From positions 194,096-258,095 of the forward strand of contig CAZVTA010000002.1 in the NCBI GenBank assembly GCA_964629815.1: a stretch of DNA of 64,000 nucleotides, given 5' to 3'. The stretch's first letter is position 1. Every line of letters begins with the position of its first letter. The notes under the pieces are model-generated. The model was not told the DNA's origin. It worked only from the letters and a program-made list of their open reading frames with translations, and ran no database searches. This DNA is from an uncultured Candidatus Saccharibacteria bacterium. Its GTDB lineage: Bacteria > Patescibacteriota > Saccharimonadia > Saccharimonadales > AWTP1-31. Both the position numbers and the translations under genes were made by a program. Positions 15,275 to 56,010 of this stretch are shown in pieces.

Positions 15275-17764
15275 GTGTCGGTATTTTTACGTGAAAAAAC
15301 ACAAAAACTCTCGAGTCTGATTAAAAAAACAACTATATCAATTCTTGCAGGTATCCTTGGATTCGTACCGCTAGGCACCCTTGTGCCACAAATAGCACAC
15401 GCCGCTGCTGACACGTGTACTTGGGACGGCAGTAGCAGTGCCAACTGGAGTGACGGTGCAAACTGGACTGGTTGTGATAATAGTGGGGTGCCACAAGATG
15501 GTGATTCACTGCTTTTCCCCACGACAGCATCTAACAAAACAAATACTAACGATATTGTTGGTCTGGACCTCAATCGAATAGATATTCAAGGGGATAACTA
15601 TGTTTTAGGAGGAAACGACTTATCTTTCACTCCTTCGTTGGCCATGGCACTGTCGATCACTGGGGATTTTAACAACTTTGGTCTTAATAGCACCATCAAT
15701 GGAAGCTCCTCTAAAGCTATCGAGTCGAGTGGTGTTGATAACGAAATTTCTGGGAACATGGTGCTAAACCTCACCGGTGGTGGTGATATGAATTTTACCA
15801 CCGGCAGCGATACCAACGATCTAGAGATTAGCGGCGTAATCAGCGGTTCTACAGATATATTCGTAGTGTCTCCAGATTCACGACTATTTTTAACTGGTAC
15901 TAACACTTTCAATAAGTCAGGCATTACGATCAACGATACGTCGATATTAGATTGCGGTGTGGACAGTTGTTTGGGAACGTATTCGTCGGGAGATACGGTA
16001 ACAATTTGGGGCGGCGGTCGACTTTATCTCGACAACAATATTAGCTTGTCAGAAGATATAGATTTTCAAGCTAGCGATAATTCACCTGGACAGATTTGGG
16101 CTGCAGCAAGCTCGACTATCACTGGTAATATTCAAACTGTTACTTCTGCAAGTGCTGTGATAGGTGTACAGAACACAACAATTTTGACTATTGATGGTGA
16201 TATTGATACAGATACTGGGGGAAGTATTCAGTTTCAGGGAGTAGAAGGTTACGCCGATAACGAAATCGATGTGAACGGTGTTTTTACAGGTGCTGGCGAT
16301 GTGTACATAGTTGATTCATTGGCGATACTGGCTGGTGCGAGCACTGGTTACACCGGTACATATAATGTTCAAAGTGGCGGGTTATTGTATCCAACCGACT
16401 CCGATGCGCTTGGCGACGATACCGGCGAAACAATCATTGCTGATGGGGGGACACTTTACACCGATACCATGCTTGATATTCCGGAACCACTGATAATTAC
16501 GGGGGACGGGCTCCAATCCGATGGATATAATGGCGCCATTGTTGGCGATACTAGTACCCATGTATTTTCTGGCCCTGTTACGTTGGATGGTGACGCAACA
16601 ATCATGAACTGGGATAGCGGCATGACACTCTCCATGAGAGGCACCATTACAGGGACAGGCAACCTTACTCTGGCTGGCCTGAATGTTGATAACGCACCAA
16701 TAGAGCTTGGTGGTTCCGGCACGTCGGAAGATGACACTCCCAATTCTTTTGTTGGGCATACATATGTTAACGGTGCTCGCCTGTTCATGCATAAAAATGA
16801 TGGGGTAAGTTCTGTCCCAGGTGACATCACAGTTACATCTGGTACCTATGCTGCAAGTTTATGGACGCAAAGTGAGGAGCAAATTCCTAATGACGCCACA
16901 GTGACACTGAACGAAGGTCTGAGTACGGCCGTACTGGTTGTGACAGGTGGTAGAACCGAGACTGTCGGAACAGTTGAAGGTGACGGCGTGATTCAGCTGG
17001 GCAGCACGAGCGATGTACTAAATGTTGGTGGCGGCGACAAAAGCGGGATATTCACCGGACGAGTACTGGCGGGGACTGGAACAACTCTACATAAAATTGG
17101 TAATGGTACTTGGGACTTTCAAGGCTCCAACTGGGATCTTGGTGGGGGTGTGGCTACATATGACGTGATAGATGGTAAATTATTGGTAAATGCCGCCGAC
17201 ACAAGTCTGGGTGACTCTAGTATCACGCTTACCGGGGGTACTCTTGGTGGTGAAAATGTTGTTGGTCCTATCACCGCATATGCGGGTGGCATCGCTCCTG
17301 GTAATAGTCCTGGCTGTCTTAACCCCGAAGGCGATGTGGCCATGACGTCTTCGGTGGCGTTTAGTGCTGAGCTGGCAGGCACAACAGTCTGTACTGGTTA
17401 CGATAAGATGTTTGCAACTGGAAATGTGATTCTTAACGGTGCAACGCTTAATGCGACCCTGTCCTTTGCATCAACTACCGGCAACAGCTTCACAATCATC
17501 GAGGCTAGCTCAGTCAGCGGGACATTTGCTGGGCTTGATGATAACGAAACATTCGTGCTAGGTAGCCGAACATTTAAGATTGACTACACGCCAACCACGG
17601 TAGTATTGAGCGATGTTGGCGAAGCGCCAACGACCAGCAGTGGCTCTCTTGGGCAAACTGGCGTCGTAGCACTTACCGGAATTTCGACAGCAATCCTCTT
17701 GACTTCTGCTGCTGGGTTATATCTAGTAAATCGTAGAAAATACTTAGTTTACAGACAGCGATAA
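15275..17764 (+). CDS. large surface protein with autotransporter-type beta-helix repeats and a C-terminal sortase sorting signal
   Basis: GTG start with SD GAGGGA; signal peptide ...VPQIAHAAA. CTWDGSSSANWSDGANW plus repeated G-T/N-rich beta-strand repeats (GTGNLTLAG, GTGTTLHKIGNGTW). C-terminus is LGQTG (17648-17662), a hydrophobic helix and an NRRKYLVYRQR tail. Confidence 0.7.
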   Translation: MSVFLREKTQKLSSLIKKTTISILAGILGFVPLGTLVPQIAHAAADTCTWDGSSSANWSDGANWTGCDNSGVPQDGDSLLFPTTASNKTNTNDIVGLDLNRIDIQGDNYVLGGNDLSFTPSLAMALSITGDFNNFGLNSTINGSSSKAIESSGVDNEISGNMVLNLTGGGDMNFTTGSDTNDLEISGVISGSTDIFVVSPDSRLFLTGTNTFNKSGITINDTSILDCGVDSCLGTYSSGDTVTIWGGGRLYLDNNISLSEDIDFQASDNSPGQIWAAASSTITGNIQTVTSASAVIGVQNTTILTIDGDIDTDTGGSIQFQGVEGYADNEIDVNGVFTGAGDVYIVDSLAILAGASTGYTGTYNVQSGGLLYPTDSDALGDDTGETIIADGGTLYTDTMLDIPEPLIITGDGLQSDGYNGAIVGDTSTHVFSGPVTLDGDATIMNWDSGMTLSMRGTITGTGNLTLAGLNVDNAPIELGGSGTSEDDTPNSFVGHTYVNGARLFMHKNDGVSSVPGDITVTSGTYAASLWTQSEEQIPNDATVTLNEGLSTAVLVVTGGRTETVGTVEGDGVIQLGSTSDVLNVGGGDKSGIFTGRVLAGTGTTLHKIGNGTWDFQGSNWDLGGGVATYDVIDGKLLVNAADTSLGDSSITLTGGTLGGENVVGPITAYAGGIAPGNSPGCLNPEGDVAMTSSVAFSAELAGTTVCTGYDKMFATGNVILNGATLNATLSFASTTGNSFTIIEASSVSGTFAGLDDNETFVLGSRTFKIDYTPTTVVLSDVGEAPTTSSGSLGQTGVVALTGISTAILLTSAAGLYLVNRRKYLVYRQR

Positions 17765-17840: not shown

Positions 17841-18260
17841 GTGAATGTTGCGTTATTGACGGAGTTTGTTGCGCGAAAACAGTATGTTGTGAGAGATGTA
17901 CTGTGCCGTAGTGGGATATTGCTAGCGTGCTTGTTGCTGGTTTTAGCATCGGTACCGCTCGGACTGCTAAAATCTCCGGAAAAAGTTTTTGCTTATTCAG
18001 GCGCAGGAACTGGAACGGCTGGTGATCCATACATTGTAACGTCATGTGCTGAGCTACAGAGTATTGGGTCTGAACCTGACACGAATGGAATTTACTATGA
18101 ACTAACAGGAGATATTGACTGTTCGGTTACTTCAGGTTGGAATAGCGGATCTGGTTTTAGTCCTATTGAAAATTTTCAGGGAAATTTTAATGGAAATAAC
18201 CACACAATAGATAGTTTATTTATCAACCGCCCTACAGAAAACAGGATTGGAAAAAAATAA
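17841..18260 (+). CDS. truncated GLUG-family head-module protein (possible gene remnant)
   Basis: 139-aa ORF with signal/TM, then DPYIVTSCAELQSIG...YYELTGDIDCSVTSGWNSGSGFSPIENFQGNFNGNNHTIDSLFINR. It stops exactly where its paralogs begin their GLUG repeats. TAATG overlap with the next gene. Confidence 0.5.
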   Translation: MNVALLTEFVARKQYVVRDVLCRSGILLACLLLVLASVPLGLLKSPEKVFAYSGAGTGTAGDPYIVTSCAELQSIGSEPDTNGIYYELTGDIDCSVTSGWNSGSGFSPIENFQGNFNGNNHTIDSLFINRPTENRIGKK

Positions 18261-20911
18261 TGAATAGACAACAATTGGTTTTAGCAGTTTTTGGCGGAGT
18301 GCTTTTTATGGGAGTGGCTCTTCTTTGGGCGCCCAGCGCAAATGCGGCAGGCGAGCCAGTAACTGTAGTTACCGGAGGTCCCGGCGTAAGCTCGAATGAT
18401 CCAATGCCAGAATTTACGTTTGTTGCCGATGTTGAAGGATCTTCATTCCGATGTCAGATAGACAGCGATCCGGCTGTTTCTTGTACGTCCCCCTATGTTG
18501 TGCCGGAGCCTCTTATTGATGGTATACATATCTTTAGTGTGAGTGCCGCCGCACCTGGAACCGAAGATTTTAATCCTTCGGCTGCTGAATATCCTTGGAG
18601 CTATACTTATGATGCAGAAACAGCCACGAACATTCATTCGTGCGAAGAGCTACAACTCATCGGGCATCACGGCAGCTATTCGCCTGCAAGTGACTACAGG
18701 CTTGCGCATGACATTGATTGTTCTGATACTGTGAACTGGAATAGTGGCCAGGGCTTTGAACCCTTGGCAAGTTTTGCCGACAGATTCACGGGGGTATTCG
18801 ATGGCGATGGCTACGCCATAAATGATCTGGTAATAAATAGAGATCCAAGTCCCACGCTTGGATTGTTTACGTATGTTCAGGGTGCGAGCTTTATCGATCT
18901 GGAAATTAGTGGTTCTGTACATAACACATCTACTGAGCTCAGTACTTGTATGGGTGGGCTGGCTGGATTTGTGTTTGATACGGTTACAATTGACGGCTTA
19001 TCAAGTTCTGTAAGCATTACGAGTGCCACGAATGATAATACTGGCGGAGGACTTGTAGGCTGTATTTCTTCCGATACTGGTCACAGTTCGATATCTAATT
19101 CACAGGTAGATGCAATAGTTGGGACGGGTGCGGCTGGAGGTTTAATAGGTGATGCTAATTTGTCTGATTCAGCAAGTTTAACCGTGAGTAATACATCGAC
19201 TTCAGGATCTGCCGAAGGGAACAATCGCGCGGCCGGGTTGATTTCGTATGTAAACTATGTGTGGGACGAAACGGCAGTCAGTACCCCGCTAATTATTGAA
19301 GATAGCACATCTACCATGGCTGTTTCAGCAAATGGCAATGCCGGCGGTCTTATCGCTAACTTGGCGCTTGATGGGCAGCCAGATTCAATCACTAACTCAA
19401 GTTTCTCAGGCACTATAAATGCTACTAGCGGTGGCAATGCCGGCGGTCTTATCGCTTCGGTTGCAAATACAGCAAATCCAGCGACACTTACGATATCAGA
19501 AAGTTTCGCTTCAACAGGGATTGTAGCTGACTCTGGCAATGCCGGCGGTCTTATCGCTGAGACAAATGCAGACCTTGAGCTTATCATCGAGCGTTCATAT
19601 GGTGCTGGGATTATTGATACCGCAGCAAGTTATGTTGGAGGGCTTGTAGGTCATGCCCAAGGATCTATAAGCATAACAGACTCGTACACCGACATTGTGT
19701 TGGACGGTACGACACGCATTGGCGGACTCATTGGTAGTGCAGAAGATGCAGATATCACTAACTCATTTGCCTTTGGAGGCATCGAAAGTACAGCAAGTAT
19801 TTTGGGCGGACTGGTTGGTGAGCTCTCAAACAGTTCAATTACGGATTCGTTTGCGTCAATGACTATCGCATCGACATGGCCAACAACGGTGGGTGGATTA
19901 ATGGGTACAAACTACGACGTGACTGTATCAAATAGCTATGTTGACACATGGCTGGGGAACAAGAGTTGTGATTCTACGGCCGGCGTAGGCTCGTCTAGCT
20001 CAGTCGACTGTACTGAAATAAGTGAAGCAAATTATTTTTTCAATAATGAAGTAAATTCACCAATAGATAATTGGAATTACGATACGGTCTGGCAAACTAA
20101 TGACTTTTTCTTCCCGTGCCTACAATGGCAAGATTACTGCCAATCGTTCGAGCCACAGGTACAATGCGAACAGCCCGATGCAACAGCAACCACCATTACT
20201 GGTGTATGTAGTATGTTGGTACGCGAAGGCTATAATTATGGAGAGACAACATGGGAAGCGCGTTATAAAAAAGCAACTGACGATACGTACCAACCAGTAA
20301 CTTTGGCCGATATAACCGAAGCACGTGCGACTATTGTTGGGCTTCAACCGGAAACAAGTTACTATCTAGAATATCGATTCACGAACGATTGGGGTACTGG
20401 CGACTGGGAGCGACAAGAATTTCTTACGCCAGCACTAACAGATATTAATATCGACATGACTTCGGCAGAAGACGCATCGCTTGTAAACTTTGTGGCTAAT
20501 GGTTGCGAACAGTTGGGAGATTGGCAGATGCTTAAAGAGAGCAACCTGGCAACACAAGATGTAGCGTACAATTATTCTGCTGGGTTAGTAGCATTCAATT
20601 TACTGAGCTGCCCAATTGGAGGTCAAGCAACTATTAGACTAACCTTTACGACCAACAAGAATCCTGAAGAGGTGGTTCTGAGAAAATATAATCAGACGCT
20701 GAAAACATTTACGTCGTTAACCCCGTCTAATAGTGGCATTACACTGGCACGAACAACACTCGAAGGTAAATCAGCTATAACGGCCACATACACAATTATA
20801 GATGGCGGAGTACTAGATCAAGACGGCATAGCCAACGGTGAAATACTTGATCCTGTAGGCATGGCCTCTTTAGTAGTCAGTGTGCCAAATACTGGGCTAG
20901 AACGACAATAG
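18260..20911 (+). CDS. large secreted GLUG-repeat surface protein with an FN3-like domain
   Basis: Signal peptide ...LLWAPSANA. Head module CEELQLIG...YRLAHDIDCSDTVNWNSGQGFEPL...FDGDGYAINDLVINR. More than 12 GGL[IV]G/A repeats, one FN3-like segment, and a C-terminal IIDGGVLDQDGIANGEILDPVG followed by VPNTGLERQ. Confidence 0.8.
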   Translation: MNRQQLVLAVFGGVLFMGVALLWAPSANAAGEPVTVVTGGPGVSSNDPMPEFTFVADVEGSSFRCQIDSDPAVSCTSPYVVPEPLIDGIHIFSVSAAAPGTEDFNPSAAEYPWSYTYDAETATNIHSCEELQLIGHHGSYSPASDYRLAHDIDCSDTVNWNSGQGFEPLASFADRFTGVFDGDGYAINDLVINRDPSPTLGLFTYVQGASFIDLEISGSVHNTSTELSTCMGGLAGFVFDTVTIDGLSSSVSITSATNDNTGGGLVGCISSDTGHSSISNSQVDAIVGTGAAGGLIGDANLSDSASLTVSNTSTSGSAEGNNRAAGLISYVNYVWDETAVSTPLIIEDSTSTMAVSANGNAGGLIANLALDGQPDSITNSSFSGTINATSGGNAGGLIASVANTANPATLTISESFASTGIVADSGNAGGLIAETNADLELIIERSYGAGIIDTAASYVGGLVGHAQGSISITDSYTDIVLDGTTRIGGLIGSAEDADITNSFAFGGIESTASILGGLVGELSNSSITDSFASMTIASTWPTTVGGLMGTNYDVTVSNSYVDTWLGNKSCDSTAGVGSSSSVDCTEISEANYFFNNEVNSPIDNWNYDTVWQTNDFFFPCLQWQDYCQSFEPQVQCEQPDATATTITGVCSMLVREGYNYGETTWEARYKKATDDTYQPVTLADITEARATIVGLQPETSYYLEYRFTNDWGTGDWERQEFLTPALTDINIDMTSAEDASLVNFVANGCEQLGDWQMLKESNLATQDVAYNYSAGLVAFNLLSCPIGGQATIRLTFTTNKNPEEVVLRKYNQTLKTFTSLTPSNSGITLARTTLEGKSAITATYTIIDGGVLDQDGIANGEILDPVGMASLVVSVPNTGLERQ
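19334..19558 (+). repeat. three perfect 24-nt direct repeats inside the GLUG gene
   Basis: ggcaatgccggcggtcttatcgct occurs at 19334-19357, 19433-19456 and 19535-19558. All copies are in frame and encode GNAGGLIA. Confidence 0.9.
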
Positions 20912-20928
20912 ACCGTTATACTAAGTAC

Positions 20929-21582
20929 ATGAGATTGCCAGTAAGTCTGAAACGATTCACGAAGAAACAAAAGCTTATTGTAGTATGTAGCGTGGCTGTA
21001 ATCGTCTTGTCTGTTGCGGGATATATATCTTTATTTAGAACCCAAATATCCAGCACCACTAAAGCAGATGTGATCACGTATTCTACCGACACGCCAGACG
21101 AAAATCCGCCAGGTAACGACTTCAAATGGCAAGGAGACAAACTAGACCCTAAGTATATTTCTCTTCCATCTATCAATGCGGGTGGTTATCTTCAGAATGT
21201 TGGCGTAGATCAGAATAAAGCAGTGGCGGTACCTAATAATATTCATATGGCAGGCTGGTTTGTAGATAGTGTGCGACCTGGTGCAATGGGAAATAGTATC
21301 ATTGACGGTCATGTAAATGGTCGCAAGAATGACGGAATTTTCAAGAATCTTGAAAAACTAAAAAAGGGCGATCAATTTTTAGTTGAGTTTGGTGATGGCA
21401 GCAAGAAAACCTTTGAAGTGGACGAGATTGTGACACTAAAGACCGAGGAGTCTGCTAGTGTTCTATTCTCGCAAAAGCCGAGCATTAAAAACCAGCTCAA
21501 TCTTATTACTTGTGGTGGTGCTTTTGATAAGCAATTACAACAGTATAGTGAACGTGTGATTGCAGTAACTAAAGCTTTGTAG
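20929..21582 (+). CDS. sortase-family transpeptidase (class E/F-like)
   Basis: N-terminal signal anchor. Catalytic triad context IIDGHVNG (His), NLITCGG (Cys), SERVIAV (Arg). TATACT at 20917-20922 lies 6 nt before the ATG. Confidence 0.85.
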   Translation: MRLPVSLKRFTKKQKLIVVCSVAVIVLSVAGYISLFRTQISSTTKADVITYSTDTPDENPPGNDFKWQGDKLDPKYISLPSINAGGYLQNVGVDQNKAVAVPNNIHMAGWFVDSVRPGAMGNSIIDGHVNGRKNDGIFKNLEKLKKGDQFLVEFGDGSKKTFEVDEIVTLKTEESASVLFSQKPSIKNQLNLITCGGAFDKQLQQYSERVIAVTKAL

Positions 21583-21662
21583 GAAAGATTGACAACATTT
21601 TTGTAAGCTTAACTCTGGTATACTCATACAAAGATAGTTGACAGAACATAGGGGGAATAAGA

Positions 21663-22157
21663 GTGGACGATATAATCAGACCAGAGAAGAAAGCAGAGCA
21701 GCCAGAGGAATCGCCGAAAGCAGAAAAGGCGCACCGTCGACGGCGTATTGTGTTGCCAAAAGTTAGCAAGAAGGCGGGCAAAAGACTGCTCATAGTTGCA
21801 ATTATCGGGCTTGTATTGGGTGGTGTGTACTATGCAGGAATAAAGAAGGGCGAAAGTCGATCAAAGGCAGCAAACAGTAAATTATCTTCAAGCACGACGA
21901 AAAAAGCAAATGACACGGCTTCAAACCGTTGGACTAGTGTTGGTACTGTCCTAGAGGTTTCAGCCGATTCAATTAAGGTCAAGGATTCTCGTGGCGAAAC
22001 AAAACAGGCCAAGATTACCAAGGATACCGTCGTTGTCGACAAGAAAGGTACAAAACTTTCGGCTAAGGATATTAAGAAGGATCAGCGCGTAATTGTGTCG
22101 GGTACTAAAGATGCCAAGAATAATTTAACTACATCAAGAATTCGCATACAGCAGTAG
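21663..22157 (+). CDS. membrane-anchored hypothetical protein (paralog of 48545-49024)
   Basis: GTG start, basic N-terminus, TM helix LLIVAIIGLVLGGVYYAGI. The C-terminal beta-rich domain aligns by eye with the 159-aa ORF at 48545-49024. Confidence 0.6.
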   Translation: MDDIIRPEKKAEQPEESPKAEKAHRRRRIVLPKVSKKAGKRLLIVAIIGLVLGGVYYAGIKKGESRSKAANSKLSSSTTKKANDTASNRWTSVGTVLEVSADSIKVKDSRGETKQAKITKDTVVVDKKGTKLSAKDIKKDQRVIVSGTKDAKNNLTTSRIRIQQ

Positions 22158-48544: not shown

Positions 48545-49024
48545 CTAGCGAACAATAATTCTCGATGCAATAGGACTATCTTTGTCCGAAGAGTTTTTGT
48601 CTTGTTTTTGGGTAAAAACGGTAAGGTTACTGTCTTTTTTTACGTCGGCGAGTTTGATGGTTTTGCTGTTCTGCGTAACCTTCGTGTCTTTGTTGATAAT
48701 TACGCTTGATGTAGTTCCATTGGCAAGCTTTACGGATAGTTTGCTGCCCGATAGGCTGTCAAATTTTCCGATGACGGTCGTAGGGAACAAAGGGTTTTTC
48801 GACAGGATGTTCATAGGGTTAACGAGATCGTTGATGCTTTTCTTTAAAGCGTCCGCACTTGCTTTCTGTCCTGCTTCGTGCCCGCGAGAGTAGCCAAGTA
48901 GAAAACTGCCGCCAATTGCAACAAGGACGAGCACGATTAAGATCGGAGTTTTTACTGCTTTTGACTGAATTTTTTGCCAAAGACTCTTTTTTTCATTGCC
49001 TGTTGATGATGGCATAACTTTCAC
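48545..49024 (-). CDS. membrane-anchored hypothetical protein (paralog of 21663-22157)
   Basis: GTG start 5 nt after AAGGAG. TM helix ILIVLVLVAIGGSFLLGY. The C-terminal domain aligns by eye with the 164-aa ORF next to the sortase. Confidence 0.6.
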   Translation of the reverse strand: MKVMPSSTGNEKKSLWQKIQSKAVKTPILIVLVLVAIGGSFLLGYSRGHEAGQKASADALKKSINDLVNPMNILSKNPLFPTTVIGKFDSLSGSKLSVKLANGTTSSVIINKDTKVTQNSKTIKLADVKKDSNLTVFTQKQDKNSSDKDSPIASRIIVR

Positions 49025-49117: not shown

Positions 49118-52100
49118 ATGAAAGCGTCTGTGCTAAAACAACATTTTCAGAAATCAAAACAACGTATGTGGCTGTTGGCAGGCTCATTTGGCTTGCTTTT
49201 TGTTGTGATCGTGTCCGTTTTTTATATATCGATTATTATGCCCATGTTCGCAAAAGCGTATTCGGGTGTTGGCTTGGGTACCGACCAAGACCCGTACCAG
49301 ATTACTACTTGCGATCAGCTGCAAGAGATATCCGAGGATCTCGACGCGCACTATGTTCTGGTTCAAGACATAGATTGTTCTGCAACAATGGAGTTAAATA
49401 ACTTTGAGCCGATCGCTGCGTTCTCAGGAACGCTTGATGGACGAAACTATGCAATTAAAGATATAAGCATTGTTCGACCTTCTCAGTATTATGCCGGTAT
49501 TTTTGAGTGGACCGCCGGTGCTACGATAAAAAACCTATCTCTTATAAAGGATCAGACGCCAGAAGGCTATGAATCGATAGTGGGTGGAGGCGTGGTCGGT
49601 ACACTTGTTGCAGAGGTGCGCGGCGGGACGATCATTCAAAATGTGCATAATGAAATGAATGTCAAAGTTCTGGGATATGATATTAATACGTCTGACGAAA
49701 CACCCGGTATTGCTTATGCGGGGGGGTTGGTAGGGCTAAACAGAGGAACGGTTTACACTAGCTCATCAGTTGGCAGCGTTACTGCTCAGGTTGGCGTTGT
49801 TCAGGCTCTCCGTATCGGAGGTTTAATTGGCAACATGGCCGACGCTGATGGCGGTCGCATTGAGGATAGCTATGCAGATGCATCGGTTACAGCTTCATCA
49901 AACGAGTCTGAGGTTATCGGAAGTTGCGGTGGCTTGGTTGGTCAGATAGGTGCACTAGGATTTATTACCCGTAGTTATAGTGCAGGAACCGTAAATTGTA
50001 CACAACAATCGCTAAGAGCTGGTGGTTTTGTTGGTGTTCAAGCTGGCGCTGGTGATGTAGATGTCATTGAAAGTTCATTTTCGACAACAAGTGTAAGTGG
50101 GTATGAGAGTGGCGGCTTCGTTGGGGACTCCGGAAGTGATAGTTTAACAAACGTTTATTTCGATGTTACAAGCTCGGGCCAAACTTTGTGCGGTCTGCCG
50201 GACCAGCAACTTAATGACTGCTATCCAGTCAATGCCGATGGGCTTTCTCCAGATTACTTTTTAGGAACTTCAAGTGGTCAACCACTTCAAAACTTTGACT
50301 TTATAGACACATGGACGATTGTTCCTGGGCAATTGCCGCAAATAAAGCCGTCTTTGGTGACGGCAGACCCCCCGGTTAATATTGGTGCAATTAGAGCAGA
50401 GGGCTCCATTAATCTTAGCTGGGAGGCGCCTGCCGTAAATGGTGTGCGAAACTCCGATATCGACGGCTACGTTATAGAGTACAAAAAAAATAACGATACA
50501 TCTTGGTCAGCTGTTGAACTTGGTGTTCCTATCGACCAAATCTCTTATGCATTTACGGACAATAAGATAGATAGTTCAACGTATCATTTTCGTATACGTA
50601 GTCATAGTACAGTTGGAACAAGTAATGTACCGAGCTCAGAAGCGGATTCTATTGTAGATGCTCCTTCGACGGCACCTGAATTAACAGTCTTGAGTCAAAC
50701 TGCACGCCAGGTTGTTCTTGGTTTCTCTGAAGCGCCGCGATCATCGGACTATGTGTTTCAGTACAAAAAAGTTGCGGACAGTGATTGGTCAACGGCGCTC
50801 GAAGGTGTAGAGTATACAGCCGGAGAAAATGTAACAATTGTTGCACTTGATCCCTCGACTCCTTATGAATTTAGGGCACTCGGTCGCAACTCGAGTGGTC
50901 AGGGACCTTGGTCTACCAGTGCAACCGCAACCACCGGCGCCGCGCAGCAGATTAGTATATCTGATTGTGCTGGCCTACAAGCTATGAACAATAATCTGGA
51001 AGCAAAATATACACTTACTGCTGATATAGATTGCACAGCCACTACAGAATGGAATGATGGTCAGGGCTTTCAGCCGATAGGCCCCAATCAAGATAGCGGT
51101 AAAGACATATTTAGTGGAGAGTTTGATGGTGCAGGGCATGCAATACGTAATTTATATATAAATCGGTCATTTGAAATTGATAACGCTGCACGTACGGAGG
51201 GTGTTGGGTTATTCGGTACGGTTGCATACGGTACTATAAAAAATGTGCGACTTAGTGGGTTTGTAGTTGCCGCAACGTATGAACTGGATCCGTCTATCGA
51301 CGCTGATCGTAATGGGCTGCCAGATTCACCAGATCTTGTTGATTATGACGGGGCAAATCTTCCGCTTGATGTACTAGGGATTTACACTACTTTTCCGCGG
51401 GTCTACGCAGGCTCCTTGGTCGGCATTTCTATAGGTAAAAATAAGTTTTCAGACATTCAGGCAGAAAACGTTGTTGTTAGCGGCTCGGTGGCTGGTGGTC
51501 TGATTGGTACACACGCAGGTATATTTGGTAGAGATTCACAGTTTACTGCATTAGGACAGGACATATCAAAGAGCACATTGTTTGTCGATAATTTGCAGTC
51601 GACCGGCGCTGTATGGGGAACAATTAGTGGAGGTATTATTGGCGTAGCTTCTGCAATGATGGGTGACCTAGAAGGTAACGAGCCTACGCTCACAATCACA
51701 AATTCAGCATCGTCTGCTGAGGTCTCTGGTAATCTGAGTGGCGGGCTTGTCGGTATTGGCTTATCGACTTCAGCTTTACTGCCGCTTGGGATCATTGATC
51801 AGTCAGAAGCGCCTACAATGTCGTTTCAAGATGTTACGGAAAAAGCACTGTCGTCACAGATGTTAATTATTACAAATTCTCATGCAACTGGCAATGTTTC
51901 GGTTTGTAATTCGCCAAGTGGTGTCCAGGTTGGTTCGCTCGGTGGTCTTATTGGTGTGGGCGTGGGGGTTAATCTAGAGAATACTTACGCAACAGGGGGT
52001 ACGGGTGCATGTACCGACACGACCGACGACTTAGATTTGTATGGCGGAGCGTACGGGGGTCTTGCTGGTACGCTGGTTATATCTACCGTTCAAAAGAGTC

Positions 52101-55100
52101 ATGCAACTGGCAATATAACACTAGTCAATGATCGCACAGATGGCCATTCGCAAGGAGGTGTTCTGGCCGTTACGGGTGGCCTTGTTGGAGTAATTATTAA
52201 CTCTGGCAATCAGAACGGTTCGATTGCGATTGATAGTGTTTATGCAACGGGTAGTACTACGGTTGAGGGAGTTAACGGTTTGCTGCATATTGGTGGCGGA
52301 CTCATGGGGGTGTATCTTGGCGGCGGTAGTATCACAAAGAGTTATGCAACCGGGAATATACTAAACAAAACAGCTCAACAAAATATTGGAGGCATCTCTA
52401 TCGTGGGAGGTTTTATGGGCGTTGCAGTCGGGGCCGATGTGCAGTATATGCTAAGCGCAGCGTTTACGATATTTAGTCAGAGCGCACTAAGCGCAGTACC
52501 GACCCAAGGTCTTGTGGTATCAGATAGCTATGCAACAGGTTCGGTGTTGTCTAATAAAGGCGATAGCGGTGGCGTTTTGTTGAGTGTGCATGGCGGGTTT
52601 GGTGGGTTGAGTATTGGTAATATTACCTATAACACTATCCATGCCAGTGGTGACGTCGGTCTGCAACATAATGGTGAATTTTATGTCGATACAGGTAGTG
52701 GCGGCATCGGCCAGGATTTTTTCGAGGTTGTGGGAGAAAATAACTCAGCAGTTGCTGTTGGTGGTGGTTTATTCGGTATGACTGCTGGTGCGGACGTAAC
52801 ACATATAGTTAATGGATTCCTTAATATAGACGATAAGCTGGGCGACGGGCTGGCAATATATAACTCGTACGCGAGCGGAAGAGTAGATGCACTTATTTCG
52901 GGTGGGTTGGTAGGTGCAGCAGAGCTGCGAACGAAGATTAGTAAAACGTATGCAACAGGCGACGTAAGTGGGCTCTTTGTTGGCGGACTCGTTGGTGAGT
53001 CGGGTACGCTTTCGTCAGTTGGTATATCGGTACTTGCAAATCTTGTATTGGGTGATTATACCCATGAAATACCCGATCAAATATTAGAGGGTATACGGCA
53101 TAGTTTTGAGGGTCTTGTACCGGTTGAGCTTGTCAACACCTATGCCACAGGCGACGTTCGCGGAAAAGAAGCTAGGATTAGTCTAGGTGGTTTTAACTTT
53201 ACAGACCCAGCCGCAACACCAATTCGCATGTCTTCAATCGCTGGGGGTCTCGTAGGTCTGGTTGGTGGCGCGGGCTCAGTTATTAAAGATTCTTACGGTT
53301 CGGGTGATGTAAGTGTCGAGACACTTACAGAGCAGCCAGTAGACAAAACGAAAATACGCTTTCCGGAGTCACCGAGCTTTATTGGTGGTATTGCGGGTGT
53401 CGTGCTTGCTGTTCCACAGGCAGATGCTGAAGCTATGCGTGACTACTTTGCACCGGATGCAGATCAGTCAGACCCTGCAGCACTTTTCCCTGAGCCGATG
53501 CGTATAGAGCGTGTATTTTCGGTTTCGAAAGTAAGCATAGCTGACGGCGTGGTCAGTGGAGGCGCTTTCGGACTCTTCTTATCGCCAATTAGTGTAGCTT
53601 TTCAGGATTCTATTTCTGTTCCTGACGGGGTTTTCTATAGCGTAAGTGACAATTATTATGACAAATCAAAAATTGACACTTCTGCATGCGATGGATTTAC
53701 GAATCCAAGCGATCGATTTAGGCAGTTGTGGCAACAGTTTATTGATAGAAATGATAGAGAAAAACTCGAAGCATTTTACACTACGAGCGATTTTGGAGAG
53801 GCTACTATTGTACCTTCTTTAGATACACTGTATGATCTTTCTTCGGATTCGTGGCAGCCCGCCTTTAAGCCGATTAGCTGTACGGCGGTTAATGAGGGTA
53901 ATGCTCAGCCAAATTACTTTATAAACAATAAAACCAATGCACCGCTCAATAACTGGGATTTTACGAATGTATGGCGCACGCGGCCAAATCAATATCCAAC
54001 ATTCGTTGCGGGCGTATCTACCAACGATCCAGAAGGCCCAGAAGATCCTGGCAGTCCTGTTACTCCGTCAACGCCAACGTCATCTACAAATACGGTTAAC
54101 CCACAAACTAGGACCACAGTTCGGGATATACTACAAAACCTGATATCTCCTAACGGAAGACTCAATACCAATGATTCTCGTGTAAAGGGTATATGGACAA
54201 TTTTTGCGAATGTTCCACCGGTTATAGCAAAAAGTATCCCGTACTTACTGATTCTAATGCTGCTTTTCTTGGCTGCAATGTATGCTCGACAAGCACTGCG
54301 CGAGTACAGGCAACTGAGCGAATATCATAATAGTGCAGTTCGTGTTGCTTCAGCAAAGGATGCTGTTAACAGCTATCTGGCAATTACTACACACTATCTC
54401 AATACGCCTGTAGCAATTATGAATGGCGCGCTCGAGTTATTGACTTCATTGAACAAGATTTCTGCAGCACGTGCAGATACCTTAAGAATTAAGCTAAAGA
54501 AATTTAGTGAAGACGTTTCTCGTTTGTTAGCTGCCAATCAGGTTTCGAGTGCGGGTTCCGTTAATCGCAGTAAAGAGGTGGAGCACCCATTGCCAAGTCC
54601 TGTAACGGCAAAAGCGGTCTGGGTTCCGGCTAGTGTTGCCTTTGCTCTGCTGGTTATTGCGAATGTTATCTTTATCTTCGCCAATGTCTTCGATAGGTCT
54701 CCGCTACGGATAACCATAGAATTTGGCCTATTCCTTCTTGGGATACTGCTCGTAGCCTTGTCGTATCGATATCGAAATTATCTCGAACAGGCAAAGATAT
54801 TAACGCTCGAACAACTTACTATTGAATCGTCGTTATACAAAAAACGAGAAGCGTTTATACCCGAAGCCACCAAGATAATTGGCGACAATTTTGAATCATT
54901 ATCTATCGCAAGCCAGGATATAAAGAAAATCCCAGAAGCCAAAGCATTCTTCAATGGCTTGGCGATGCTGGGGGGCGTAAACACAGGATTACAAAATCTA
55001 GAGAAGTTTGCACATTTCAAGACAGATCCGCCGCTCTTTGATATAACCGCTGCTGCCAATAAAGCAGTGCAGGAGGTTGCAGACAGGGCAAAGGCAAAAG

Positions 55101-55531
55101 GTGTGCTCGTGACTGCAAGCATTGCCTCGGGCGTAATAACGCATATTGAACCTGCAGAAATAAAGCATGTGTTTGACTCTTTGCTTGATAACGCAATCAA
55201 GTTCAATAATCAAGGCGGCAAGGTTGTTATGAACGTTGCTAAAAAGTACGACAAGCTGGTGGTGTCAGTGAGTGATACCGGTGTTGGTATATCCGAACAA
55301 AAATTGCCAAGCTTGCTACAGCCTTTTAGTCGCGGCACTGACTCGATGCAGTACAACTACGAAGGTGTTGGCCTGAGTTTGTACGCAACCAAGTTGATTG
55401 TCGATAAATTAGGTGGCTCAATCATAATCGATAGCACCCTTGGCAAGGGCACTACTGTAACAATAAATCTACCCCTGCAGTATGAAGCGAATGTGTTAGC
55501 GCCTATGGTTGTTACGCCACAAGCTGCCTAA
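49118..55531 (+). CDS. giant (2137-aa) GLUG-repeat/FN3 ectodomain protein fused to a C-terminal histidine kinase
   Basis: N-terminal TM helix. Two head modules (CDQLQEIS...DIDCSAT; CAGLQAMN...DIDCTATTEWNDGQGFQPI...FDGAGHAIRNLYINR). Dozens of GG[LF][VI]G repeats and two FN3-like domains. Three TM helices. H-box ITTHYLNTPVAIM (His codon 54392-54394). N-box DNAIKF, G1 DTGVGI, G2 GVGLSL. Confidence 0.85.
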   Translation: MKASVLKQHFQKSKQRMWLLAGSFGLLFVVIVSVFYISIIMPMFAKAYSGVGLGTDQDPYQITTCDQLQEISEDLDAHYVLVQDIDCSATMELNNFEPIAAFSGTLDGRNYAIKDISIVRPSQYYAGIFEWTAGATIKNLSLIKDQTPEGYESIVGGGVVGTLVAEVRGGTIIQNVHNEMNVKVLGYDINTSDETPGIAYAGGLVGLNRGTVYTSSSVGSVTAQVGVVQALRIGGLIGNMADADGGRIEDSYADASVTASSNESEVIGSCGGLVGQIGALGFITRSYSAGTVNCTQQSLRAGGFVGVQAGAGDVDVIESSFSTTSVSGYESGGFVGDSGSDSLTNVYFDVTSSGQTLCGLPDQQLNDCYPVNADGLSPDYFLGTSSGQPLQNFDFIDTWTIVPGQLPQIKPSLVTADPPVNIGAIRAEGSINLSWEAPAVNGVRNSDIDGYVIEYKKNNDTSWSAVELGVPIDQISYAFTDNKIDSSTYHFRIRSHSTVGTSNVPSSEADSIVDAPSTAPELTVLSQTARQVVLGFSEAPRSSDYVFQYKKVADSDWSTALEGVEYTAGENVTIVALDPSTPYEFRALGRNSSGQGPWSTSATATTGAAQQISISDCAGLQAMNNNLEAKYTLTADIDCTATTEWNDGQGFQPIGPNQDSGKDIFSGEFDGAGHAIRNLYINRSFEIDNAARTEGVGLFGTVAYGTIKNVRLSGFVVAATYELDPSIDADRNGLPDSPDLVDYDGANLPLDVLGIYTTFPRVYAGSLVGISIGKNKFSDIQAENVVVSGSVAGGLIGTHAGIFGRDSQFTALGQDISKSTLFVDNLQSTGAVWGTISGGIIGVASAMMGDLEGNEPTLTITNSASSAEVSGNLSGGLVGIGLSTSALLPLGIIDQSEAPTMSFQDVTEKALSSQMLIITNSHATGNVSVCNSPSGVQVGSLGGLIGVGVGVNLENTYATGGTGACTDTTDDLDLYGGAYGGLAGTLVISTVQKSHATGNITLVNDRTDGHSQGGVLAVTGGLVGVIINSGNQNGSIAIDSVYATGSTTVEGVNGLLHIGGGLMGVYLGGGSITKSYATGNILNKTAQQNIGGISIVGGFMGVAVGADVQYMLSAAFTIFSQSALSAVPTQGLVVSDSYATGSVLSNKGDSGGVLLSVHGGFGGLSIGNITYNTIHASGDVGLQHNGEFYVDTGSGGIGQDFFEVVGENNSAVAVGGGLFGMTAGADVTHIVNGFLNIDDKLGDGLAIYNSYASGRVDALISGGLVGAAELRTKISKTYATGDVSGLFVGGLVGESGTLSSVGISVLANLVLGDYTHEIPDQILEGIRHSFEGLVPVELVNTYATGDVRGKEARISLGGFNFTDPAATPIRMSSIAGGLVGLVGGAGSVIKDSYGSGDVSVETLTEQPVDKTKIRFPESPSFIGGIAGVVLAVPQADAEAMRDYFAPDADQSDPAALFPEPMRIERVFSVSKVSIADGVVSGGAFGLFLSPISVAFQDSISVPDGVFYSVSDNYYDKSKIDTSACDGFTNPSDRFRQLWQQFIDRNDREKLEAFYTTSDFGEATIVPSLDTLYDLSSDSWQPAFKPISCTAVNEGNAQPNYFINNKTNAPLNNWDFTNVWRTRPNQYPTFVAGVSTNDPEGPEDPGSPVTPSTPTSSTNTVNPQTRTTVRDILQNLISPNGRLNTNDSRVKGIWTIFANVPPVIAKSIPYLLILMLLFLAAMYARQALREYRQLSEYHNSAVRVASAKDAVNSYLAITTHYLNTPVAIMNGALELLTSLNKISAARADTLRIKLKKFSEDVSRLLAANQVSSAGSVNRSKEVEHPLPSPVTAKAVWVPASVAFALLVIANVIFIFANVFDRSPLRITIEFGLFLLGILLVALSYRYRNYLEQAKILTLEQLTIESSLYKKREAFIPEATKIIGDNFESLSIASQDIKKIPEAKAFFNGLAMLGGVNTGLQNLEKFAHFKTDPPLFDITAAANKAVQEVADRAKAKGVLVTASIASGVITHIEPAEIKHVFDSLLDNAIKFNNQGGKVVMNVAKKYDKLVVSVSDTGVGISEQKLPSLLQPFSRGTDSMQYNYEGVGLSLYATKLIVDKLGGSIIIDSTLGKGTTVTINLPLQYEANVLAPMVVTPQAA

Positions 55532-55551: not shown

Positions 55552-56010
55552 CTAATTTTGTAAAGATTTTAGGTCGCGAATTATTTCGGCAGCGTGAGTA
55601 AGTGGGTTGACGCCCTCGTATGTTTTGACGAAGTGACCCTCCGGGCTGATGATGTAAGTATTTCGCCTTATACCTTCGTAATCTCGGCCCATGAATTTCT
55701 TCATGCCCCATGCTCCATATGCTTCGATAGTCGTATGATCTGGATCGCTCAGTAGCGTAAAGTTCAGTGAATGTTTGTCGGCAAATTTTTTGTGCGATGC
55801 AACAGAATCTTTGCTTATGCCAATTACAACTGCATTGCCAAGCTCGGCAATTACATCTCTAGCATCGCGAAATGCACATGCTTCTTTGGTGCAGCCAGGC
55901 GTGTCATCTTTAGGGTAGAAGTATAAAACAATCCACTTTCCGGCATAGTCTTTCAAGCTCCGCATAGTGCCATCTTGGTCTGGTAACGAGAAATCGGGGG
56001 CTTTTTTCAT
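55552..56010 (-). CDS. bcp: thiol peroxidase Bcp (peroxiredoxin)
   Basis: FSLPDQDG..., YFYPKDDTPGCTKEAC, GISKDS. Confidence 0.9.
   Translation of the reverse strand: MKKAPDFSLPDQDGTMRSLKDYAGKWIVLYFYPKDDTPGCTKEACAFRDARDVIAELGNAVVIGISKDSVASHKKFADKHSLNFTLLSDPDHTTIEAYGAWGMKKFMGRDYEGIRRNTYIISPEGHFVKTYEGVNPLTHAAEIIRDLKSLQN

Follow-up and report, generated by a model that had tools for sequence, protein, structure and literature searches.

A predicted sensor histidine kinase of Saccharibacteria with a giant GLUG-type ectodomain and two DHp hairpins separated by transmembrane helices

The 64-kb stretch of Candidatus Saccharibacteria DNA analysed here (contig CAZVTA010000002.1; hereafter the window) carries at 49118..55531 (+) a gene for a giant-ectodomain sensor histidine kinase of 2137 aa, in whose kinase module the predicted phospho-acceptor histidine and the catalytic and ATP-binding (CA) domain stand on two different dimerisation and histidine phosphotransfer (DHp) hairpins, with two transmembrane (TM) helices between them. 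As claimed in a preliminary description of this DNA, the open reading frame (ORF) is single and uninterrupted, from the ATG at 49118 to the stop codon at 55531. We consider it probable that the product is a genuine transmembrane phospho-signalling sensor kinase, belonging to a family that has so far turned up in Saccharibacteria only, with a CheA-like split between its acceptor part and its dimerisation and catalytic part. While histidine kinases as such are a known kind of protein, the DHp1-TM-TM-DHp2 architecture is undescribed in the literature searched: a full-text search returned no description of this kinase family, nor of tandem-DHp kinases split by TM helices, and the DHp1-TM3-TM4-DHp2 region is covered by no Pfam or NCBIfam model. 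Family members bear generic database names such as "signal transduction histidine kinase", and one member with NHL repeats is called "6-bladed beta-propeller".

Two DHp hairpins in one kinase module

We collected the family by an exhaustive phmmer search with the 307 residues from TM2 to DHp2 (CA excluded) against 1.84 billion cluster representatives (50% identity), which gave 327 matches at E <= 1e-3 and 146 at E <= 1e-10, the match always lying just upstream of a C-terminal CA domain. A word-indexed search with the same 307-aa query found only one representative (P0003), reflecting the limits of the index. On the strength of the exhaustive search, the gene is no one-off, and the family comprises at least 327 clusters at 50% identity, with interchangeable ectodomains. 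The window protein and its best 149 matches were inspected, and the 137 of these 150 proteins that carry the whole module form the set on which the conservation figures below are based.

The first hairpin, DHp1 (54299..54547, +), is of the HisKA type and holds the predicted acceptor His1759 in the motif NSYLAITTHYLNTPVAIMNGALELL, at codon 54392-54394, exactly where the preliminary description had placed the H-box histidine. A profile of 41 sequences covering residues 1728-1822, compared with the sequences of the PDB, matches the DHp domain of HK853 with E 2.8e-6, putting His1759 on His260, and those of EnvZ and CpxA with E 6e-4 to 1e-3, again on the phospho-His; taken individually, 37 of the 41 members match Pfam HisKA (PF00512), at best with 2e-9. 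Judged by these alignments, DHp1 is a HisKA-type domain with an H-box. His1759 is kept in 129 of the 137 representatives (94%) and Thr at H+4 in 122, the family consensus of the box reads [FY][LIV]x[IL][TA][ST]HYLNTP..[ML].G..ELL, and no other His-rich column that could provide an alternative acceptor occurs in the module across the set.

The second hairpin, DHp2 (54773..55027, +; REAFIPEATK...), is a degenerate DHp directly upstream of the CA domain. When a profile of the module is compared with the PDB sequences, the part from about residue 1905 to the C-terminus aligns with the whole DHp-CA unit of HK853 (E 6e-25), and within this match the DHp2 stretch falls on HK853 residues 14-90, with Lys1919 (in FIPEATK) at the position of phospho-His260. 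The column where the canonical histidine would stand is fully variable in the family, which bears out the earlier claim of a second DHp-like segment without His. The CA domain itself (55046..55480, +) was described as complete, and is: Pfam HATPase_c (PF02518) matches with E 4.8e-23 and 82 bits against a cut-off of 26.4, and the N box (DNAIKF), G1 box (DTGVGI), F box (QPF) and G2 box (GVGLSL) are all present and 93-100% conserved, with the N-box Asn in 137/137 representatives, the G1 positions in 131-137/137, the F-box Pro-Phe in 134/137 and the G2 positions in 127-134/137. By comparison with known kinases, the domain is closest to those of the WalK/PhoR/PnpS type, and Foldseek searches with a model of the module rank HK853, WalK and ZraS at the top and also return BceS, DivL and RetS.

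The two hairpins resemble each other. In hhalign comparisons, the stretch from TM2 through DHp1 matches that from TM4 through DHp2 with 95% probability (E 2.6e-8), and DHp1 matches DHp2 with 82% probability (E 1e-5) when the TM helices are left out, while reversed and column-shuffled controls stay at or below 1.8%; in both alignments the His column of DHp1 pairs with the variable column of DHp2. Because of these matches and their negative controls, we conclude from the sequence comparison that the module is composed of two diverged tandem [TM-DHp] copies, the first of which keeps the histidine and the second the link to the CA domain. The "split dimerisation region" of the preliminary description thus stands in so far as the DHp with the His box lies apart from the DHp attached to the CA domain, and is better put as two homologous tandem units.

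The arrangement in the membrane follows from a Kyte-Doolittle hydropathy scan, which gives four strong hydrophobic helices, at positions that agree with those reported before (an N-terminal helix, about 54235-54290 and about 54610-54770); three weaker peaks are Gly-rich GLUG strands and not TM helices. The N-terminal segment (49169..49249, +; aa 18-44, peak at aa 26-44, hydropathy 2.64) follows a start rich in positive charge (5 K/R and 0 D/E in the first 25 aa) and acts either as a signal anchor (TM1) or as a signal peptide that can be cleaved off. Behind it comes a conserved AxA motif, AKA followed by YSG (MPMFAKAYS, aa 40-48, 49235-49261; ortholog consensus PxxAxAFSG), which suggests cleavage by signal peptidase; TM1 may therefore not be a lasting anchor, in which case TM2-TM4 alone would hold the mature protein in the membrane. 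TM2 (54230..54298, +; aa ~1705-1727), which carries a conserved SIPY/P1706 motif, runs from outside to inside and is continuous with helix 1 of DHp1; TM3 and TM4 (54629..54772, +; aa 1838-1858 and 1863-1885, hydropathy 2.59 and 2.22) form a family-conserved hairpin with an outer loop of four residues, DRSP. The H-box accordingly lies between TM2 and the TM3-TM4 hairpin, the topology that had been pointed out as unusual. Since K/R residues are enriched on the predicted cytoplasmic sides, we place the N-terminus inside, the ectodomain outside, DHp1 inside, the four-residue loop outside and DHp2-CA inside. His1759 is found 32 residues past TM2 and position 1919 34 residues past TM4, so both DHp hairpins would lie at a similar depth below the membrane. 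An AlphaFold2 prediction for the 447-aa module, made from a 7-sequence alignment and returned as secondary structure alone (pLDDT 66, pTM 0.45), has TM2 running into the H-box as one continuous helix and TM4 likewise continuous into DHp2.

Compared with class I HisKA kinases (HK853 of Thermotoga maritima, WalK/YycG, PhoR, EnvZ), the window kinase has the same N, G1, F and G2 boxes, a DHp hairpin immediately before the CA domain, a TM helix that runs into DHp helix 1, and an H-box resembling F-x-x-x-S-H-E-L-R-T-P-L. It differs in that the CA-attached DHp has no histidine, a TM hairpin and DHp2 intervene, the residue at H+1 is Tyr and not Glu, and the ectodomain is 5-10 times the usual size. As two TM helices and DHp2 part His1759 from the CA domain, there is no contiguous His-DHp-CA core, and we regard the protein as an unusual variant of a HisKA kinase. 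In CheA, the acceptor His is on a module apart from the His-less DHp-like dimerisation domain (P3) that bears the CA domain (P4). The functional logic of the window kinase is alike, with an acceptor module apart from a His-less DHp and CA; weak matches of its CA domain to CheA are irrelevant to this comparison. In contrast to CheA, however, the acceptor is a DHp/HisKA hairpin on a sensor TM helix and not an HPt four-helix bundle, P2 and P5/CheW-like domains are lacking (Pfam Hpt and CheW find no match in the protein), and the kinase is itself a transmembrane receptor. BceS-type intramembrane-sensing kinases share the minimal two-TM layout in which TM3 and TM4, with a four-residue loop, lead into DHp2-CA, and Foldseek aligns 320 columns of the module with BceS (8g3a_D); the window kinase differs from them in the missing His of the attached DHp and in the extra sensor unit upstream, and no BceAB-type transporter is conserved among the neighbours of the family, where a single ABC ATPase lies near one paralog (L024). 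DivL and RetS are, like DHp2-CA, kinase cores whose DHp lacks the acceptor His; the window kinase, unlike them, keeps a conserved acceptor on another DHp of the same chain.

The ectodomain and the spread of the family

The ectodomain of about 1650 aa consists of two GLUG beta-helix modules, two fibronectin type III (FN3) domains and a Pro/Thr-rich stalk. Module 1 (49250..50362, +; aa 45-415), which comprises a Cys-containing head, GLUG repeats and a cap, exceeds the Pfam GLUG threshold (PF07581) in a scan of this module by itself (E 2e-5, 25.1 bits, cut-off 20.5), whereas the whole 2137-aa protein remains below it (E 0.075). AlphaFold2 gives a confident all-beta model from an 18-sequence alignment (pLDDT 89, pTM 0.91), for which the best Foldseek match is BACOVA_03286 (3n6z), a GLUG beta-helix protein (E 6e-7, TM-scores 0.58/0.64), followed by N-terminal domains of IgA1 proteases (E 7e-7 to 2.5e-4), with TM-scores of about 0.51-0.64 over the beta-helix matches; in sequence, too, the module shows a weak similarity to the N-terminal domain of the pneumococcal IgA1 protease (E 3.5e-4). 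With BACOVA_03286 and the streptococcal IgA1 protease domains (6xja, 7uvk) module 1 thus shares the beta-helix fold and the GLUG motif, but the window kinase has no M26 protease domain and, in a motif scan of the 2137 aa, neither a HEXXH protease motif nor an LPXTG-like anchor, and TM helices link its beta-helix to a kinase. We rejected an ectodomain acting as a protease or as a sortase substrate for the lack of these two motifs and in view of the C-terminus, which is the kinase.

The two FN3 domains (50372..50935, +; aa ~419-507 and ~520-606) had been proposed from the sequence and are supported by Pfam fn3, in two stretches with E 3e-11, and by a match of the pair to titin FN3 (E 5e-19). Module 2 (50945..54037, +; aa 610-1640) has no Pfam match of its own and is assigned to the GLUG type by homology. 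It comprises a second Cys head, a tract of degenerate GLUG repeats some 1000 aa long, and a cap carrying an NYFxNNKxNAPLNxWDF motif. Homologous sequences are module 1 (28% identity over 304-305 aa, E 2e-11 to 2e-10) and, at 18260-20911 of the window, a bona fide GLUG protein (27% over 528 aa, E 8e-14). The two Cys-containing heads described earlier are therefore homologous to each other, and their cysteines are kept in orthologs; the "dozens" of GG[LF][VI]G repeats, on the other hand, shrink to 12 with the strict motif and 17 with a looser pattern. A Pro/Thr/Ser-rich stalk (54038..54187, +; aa ~1641-1690; DPEGPEDPGSPVTPSTPTSSTNTVNPQTRTT...) precedes TM2 and is probably wall-spanning.

Across the family, whose members measure 419-4413 aa, most of them more than 1200 aa, GLUG-type ectodomains related to that of the window kinase are found in about 40 representatives and others are unrelated; those of the latter that we tested consist of NHL beta-propellers with Big_7 Ig domains or of Big_13 Ig domains. 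P0143, P0140, P0154 and P0231 (P-numbers denote family protein representatives) are examples from elsewhere of NHL propeller and Big_7 ectodomains and of extreme length, and P0231, the longest at 4413 aa, has a partly GLUG-like ectodomain. The shortest forms have a loop of only about 30-200 aa, so that the ectodomain spans from about 30 to about 4000 aa overall. Among the 25 related loci that we compared (L001-L025), two genomes (L017, and L004 with P0003) encode at the syntenic position a version of 500-502 aa without ectodomain, in which the module is kept. A very large beta-rich extracytoplasmic sensor on a kinase, in some family members with NHL propellers and Ig domains, is also a feature of the hybrid two-component systems of Bacteroides (e.g., BT4663), in which Reg_prop/Y_Y_Y sensors of about 700 aa go with one canonical DHp-CA, and receiver and AraC output are part of the same chain; Reg_prop/Y_Y_Y sensor, canonical single DHp-CA, receiver and AraC are all absent from the window kinase.

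When 185,579 species-representative genomes were scanned with a pattern for the complete 447-aa module, it was found solely in metagenome-assembled genomes (MAGs) labelled Saccharibacteria, Saccharimonadota, Patescibacteria or "bacterium". Between the window protein and its close relatives among the cluster representatives, the ectodomain is 31-47% identical and the TM2-to-DHp2 module, CA excluded, 43-57%. A more distant paralog, with 28-31% identity to the module, is encoded upstream of ftsH elsewhere (L020, 27-4526; L006, 142-1740), so that on JBPOHZ010000003.1 two genes of the family lie some 8 kb from each other; the window has one only.

Genomic neighbourhood and a candidate accessory protein

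The next gene downstream is, as described before, the convergent bcp (AhpC/TSA family, 55552-56010, -), and the window also holds ftsH, murJ, lepA, adk, hrcA, grpE and dnaK near the kinase. The order lepA, orf159 (-), kinase, bcp (-), hrcA, grpE, dnaK is conserved. LepA and DnaK of the window are 83-94% and 84-93% identical, respectively, to those of named Saccharibacteria MAGs at the syntenic loci, which places the window in the Saccharibacteria. A consensus scan for promoters and terminators gave nothing above shuffled expectation. Where family paralogs lie outside this synteny, their neighbours are unrelated genes (CNNM/CBS, DUF2207, FMN reductase, ABC ATPase, HhH-GPD), and no conserved DNA-binding partner occurs among the immediate ones. 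For some Saccharibacteria, a BceRS-like pair with a response regulator next to it is documented (PMC7567580).

Divergent from the kinase, orf159 (48545..49024, -) encodes a small membrane-anchored protein of 159 aa, the beta domain of which is DUF5666-like. In 14 syntenic loci it is found at this same place, a homolog lies beside L023, a paralog outside the synteny (E 6e-7 against the family hidden Markov model (HMM); Pfam DUF5666 E 1.2e-4), and both loci whose syntenic kinase has no ectodomain (L017 and L004) lack it. The window contains a paralog of it at 21642-22154 (+), beside another GLUG protein and a sortase. From this distribution, the product of orf159 probably works with GLUG ectodomains and is a candidate accessory partner. 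The paralog closes a surface-protein cluster (17841-22154, +) that opens with a truncated, head-only ORF of 139 aa (17841-18260, +) and continues with the full GLUG protein mentioned above (18260-20911, +; Pfam Glug E 1.3e-15), which is homologous to the kinase ectodomain and ends in ...VPNTGLERQ, and with the adjoining sortase (20851-21579, +). Upstream of the cluster, at 15275-17764 (+), is the gene for a secreted protein of 829 aa without a Pfam match. Its C-terminus, LGQTG with a hydrophobic segment and finally RRK behind it, resembles a sortase sorting signal, albeit one whose motif is non-canonical.

Alternative explanations, mechanism and significance

That a GLUG adhesin gene was wrongly joined to a separate kinase gene by a misassembly or frameshift has next to no probability left. 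The identical 2137-aa protein is encoded by three contigs from two samples (two sequencing runs), a 303-kb NCBI contig with it is also on record, and N-run-free intact kinase ORFs, orthologous or paralogous, are found in 12 other species-representative Saccharibacteria genomes (2277, 2261, 2189, 2242, 2244, 2122, 2198, 2121, 2281, 1805, 2135 and 2345 aa); the exhaustive search adds dozens of proteins of more than 2000 aa with the module at their C-terminus, and the alignment is continuous across the junction of ectodomain and kinase in 17 orthologs. The only support for two genes comes from two relatives in which the region is called as such, but in one of them (L003) the split is a scaffold gap of 10 N, and in the other (L005) a single in-frame TAA causes it, which falls midway through the GLUG region and away from the ectodomain/kinase boundary; the downstream piece has no signal sequence. 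By comparison with homologs the artefact is already refuted: the fusion is one real gene, and it is conserved in many Saccharibacteria genomes, a point on which the preliminary description had sought confirmation. The TAA of L005 (4707-4709), on a Saccharibacteria contig seen in two samples, could mark a pseudogene, a natural truncation into a free adhesin and an anchorless kinase piece, or a sequencing error.

Several observations weigh against the protein being an active, CheA-like sensor kinase. H+1 is Tyr in 121 of the 137 representatives, and the alternatives listed, none of them acidic, are His (6), Phe (3), Gln (2), Ser (2), Asn (1) and Val (1). In HisKA kinases a Glu or Asp after the phospho-His is the general base, and as Tyr replaces it here, the autokinase chemistry may be different or weak. 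The HisKA match that was expected earlier is significant for the H-box with the family profile, whereas the window protein alone falls short of the Pfam threshold (17.6 bits against 26.9, E 0.004-0.046). No receiver domain is found with an HMM in the 64 kb of the window, in accordance with the preliminary description, nor within 10 kb in the 25 related loci, while in control loci of other phyla the same HMM picks up 94 ORFs with a receiver. Finally, the AlphaFold2 model of the module, of moderate confidence, is uninformative on the packing of DHp1 and DHp2, be it within a single intramolecular four-helix bundle or as two homodimeric ones, and a co-variation analysis (mean-field direct coupling analysis, 137 representatives) aimed at contacts between the two hairpins yielded only artefacts of gaps and TM composition. 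The Tyr at H+1, the lack of a His in the CA-attached DHp, the absence of a nearby response regulator from all 25 loci and the Foldseek matches to DivL and RetS would all suit a protein that is mainly a surface adhesin or structural protein, whose kinase-like part binds ATP or partners without any His-to-Asp phosphorelay, or serves as a phosphatase or scaffold only, like DivL and RetS. We think this quite improbable: His1759 and a HisKA-like box persist in 94% of representatives spanning about 21-57% identity and the ATP-binding boxes are 93-100% conserved, a selective conservation that is expected of an active phosphotransfer enzyme, and the existence of members without ectodomain indicates that the module functions in its own right and does not serve merely as an anchor. 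It is also rather unlikely, to our mind, that an active kinase of this kind monitors or acts on the cell's own wall or surface layer in the manner of WalK, without sensing a host or another foreign surface. The WalK/PhoR/PnpS-type CA domain is in line with such a role, as is the conserved gene block to which the kinase belongs together with murJ, ftsH, bcp and hrcA-grpE-dnaK, and the adjoining small membrane-anchored orf159 product recalls the accessory pairings of WalK with YycH/YycI and of LiaS with LiaF. These neighbours, however, are housekeeping genes without a demonstrated regulatory link, and the ectodomain diverges far faster than they do (31-47% against 83-94% identity for LepA) and has been swapped for unrelated binding folds (NHL propellers, Ig domains), a pattern more in keeping with external targets that change than with a self structure that is conserved.

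For the transmembrane phospho-signalling kinase that we favour, we infer the route of His1759 phosphorylation, the partner regulator and the stimulus as follows. Binding of the ectodomain to a ligand or surface would shift TM2 relative to the TM3-TM4 hairpin, and this shift would alter how DHp1 is presented to the CA domain anchored on DHp2. The CA domain would then phosphorylate His1759, from which the phosphoryl group would pass to a response regulator whose gene lies in another part of the genome. This would amount to a CheA-like division of labour, built from two diverged [TM-DHp] copies within one membrane protein. Because of the adhesin-like folds, the fast and modular divergence of the ectodomain and the epibiotic lifestyle of cultured Saccharibacteria, the stimulus would most likely be a structure on the surface of a host or neighbouring cell. 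One may go further and imagine a single-chain, "pseudo-dimeric", mechanically gated kinase, in which DHp1, with the His but no CA, and DHp2, with the CA but no His, form one intramolecular four-helix bundle, whose inherent asymmetry takes the place of the usual homodimer, and pulling on the ectodomain or binding to it slides TM2 against TM3-TM4; the family would then be an epibiont's sensor of host contact, with ectodomains setting specificity and orf159-like proteins as co-receptors. We put this forward as speculation that is considerably more likely to be wrong than right.

Few bacterial signalling proteins are as well studied as two-component kinases, whose core is commonly understood as a single DHp with a single CA domain attached directly to it. 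The present family breaks this rule, and does so conservedly, with the acceptor His on a separate DHp before a membrane hairpin and the CA domain on a degenerate DHp. It thereby provides a natural test case for how a CA domain finds its histidine, for monomeric versus dimeric function and for phosphorylation in cis versus in trans. Saccharibacteria are ultrasmall epibionts with few regulators, and for the recognition of, and response to, their hosts a conserved kinase whose adhesin-like ectodomain of 1000-4000 aa evolves fast and can be swapped is an obvious candidate. Some Saccharibacteria are now genetically manipulable, so this candidate role could be tested, and the large, uncharacterised family to which the window kinase belongs may be the means by which these tiny bacteria sense surfaces.

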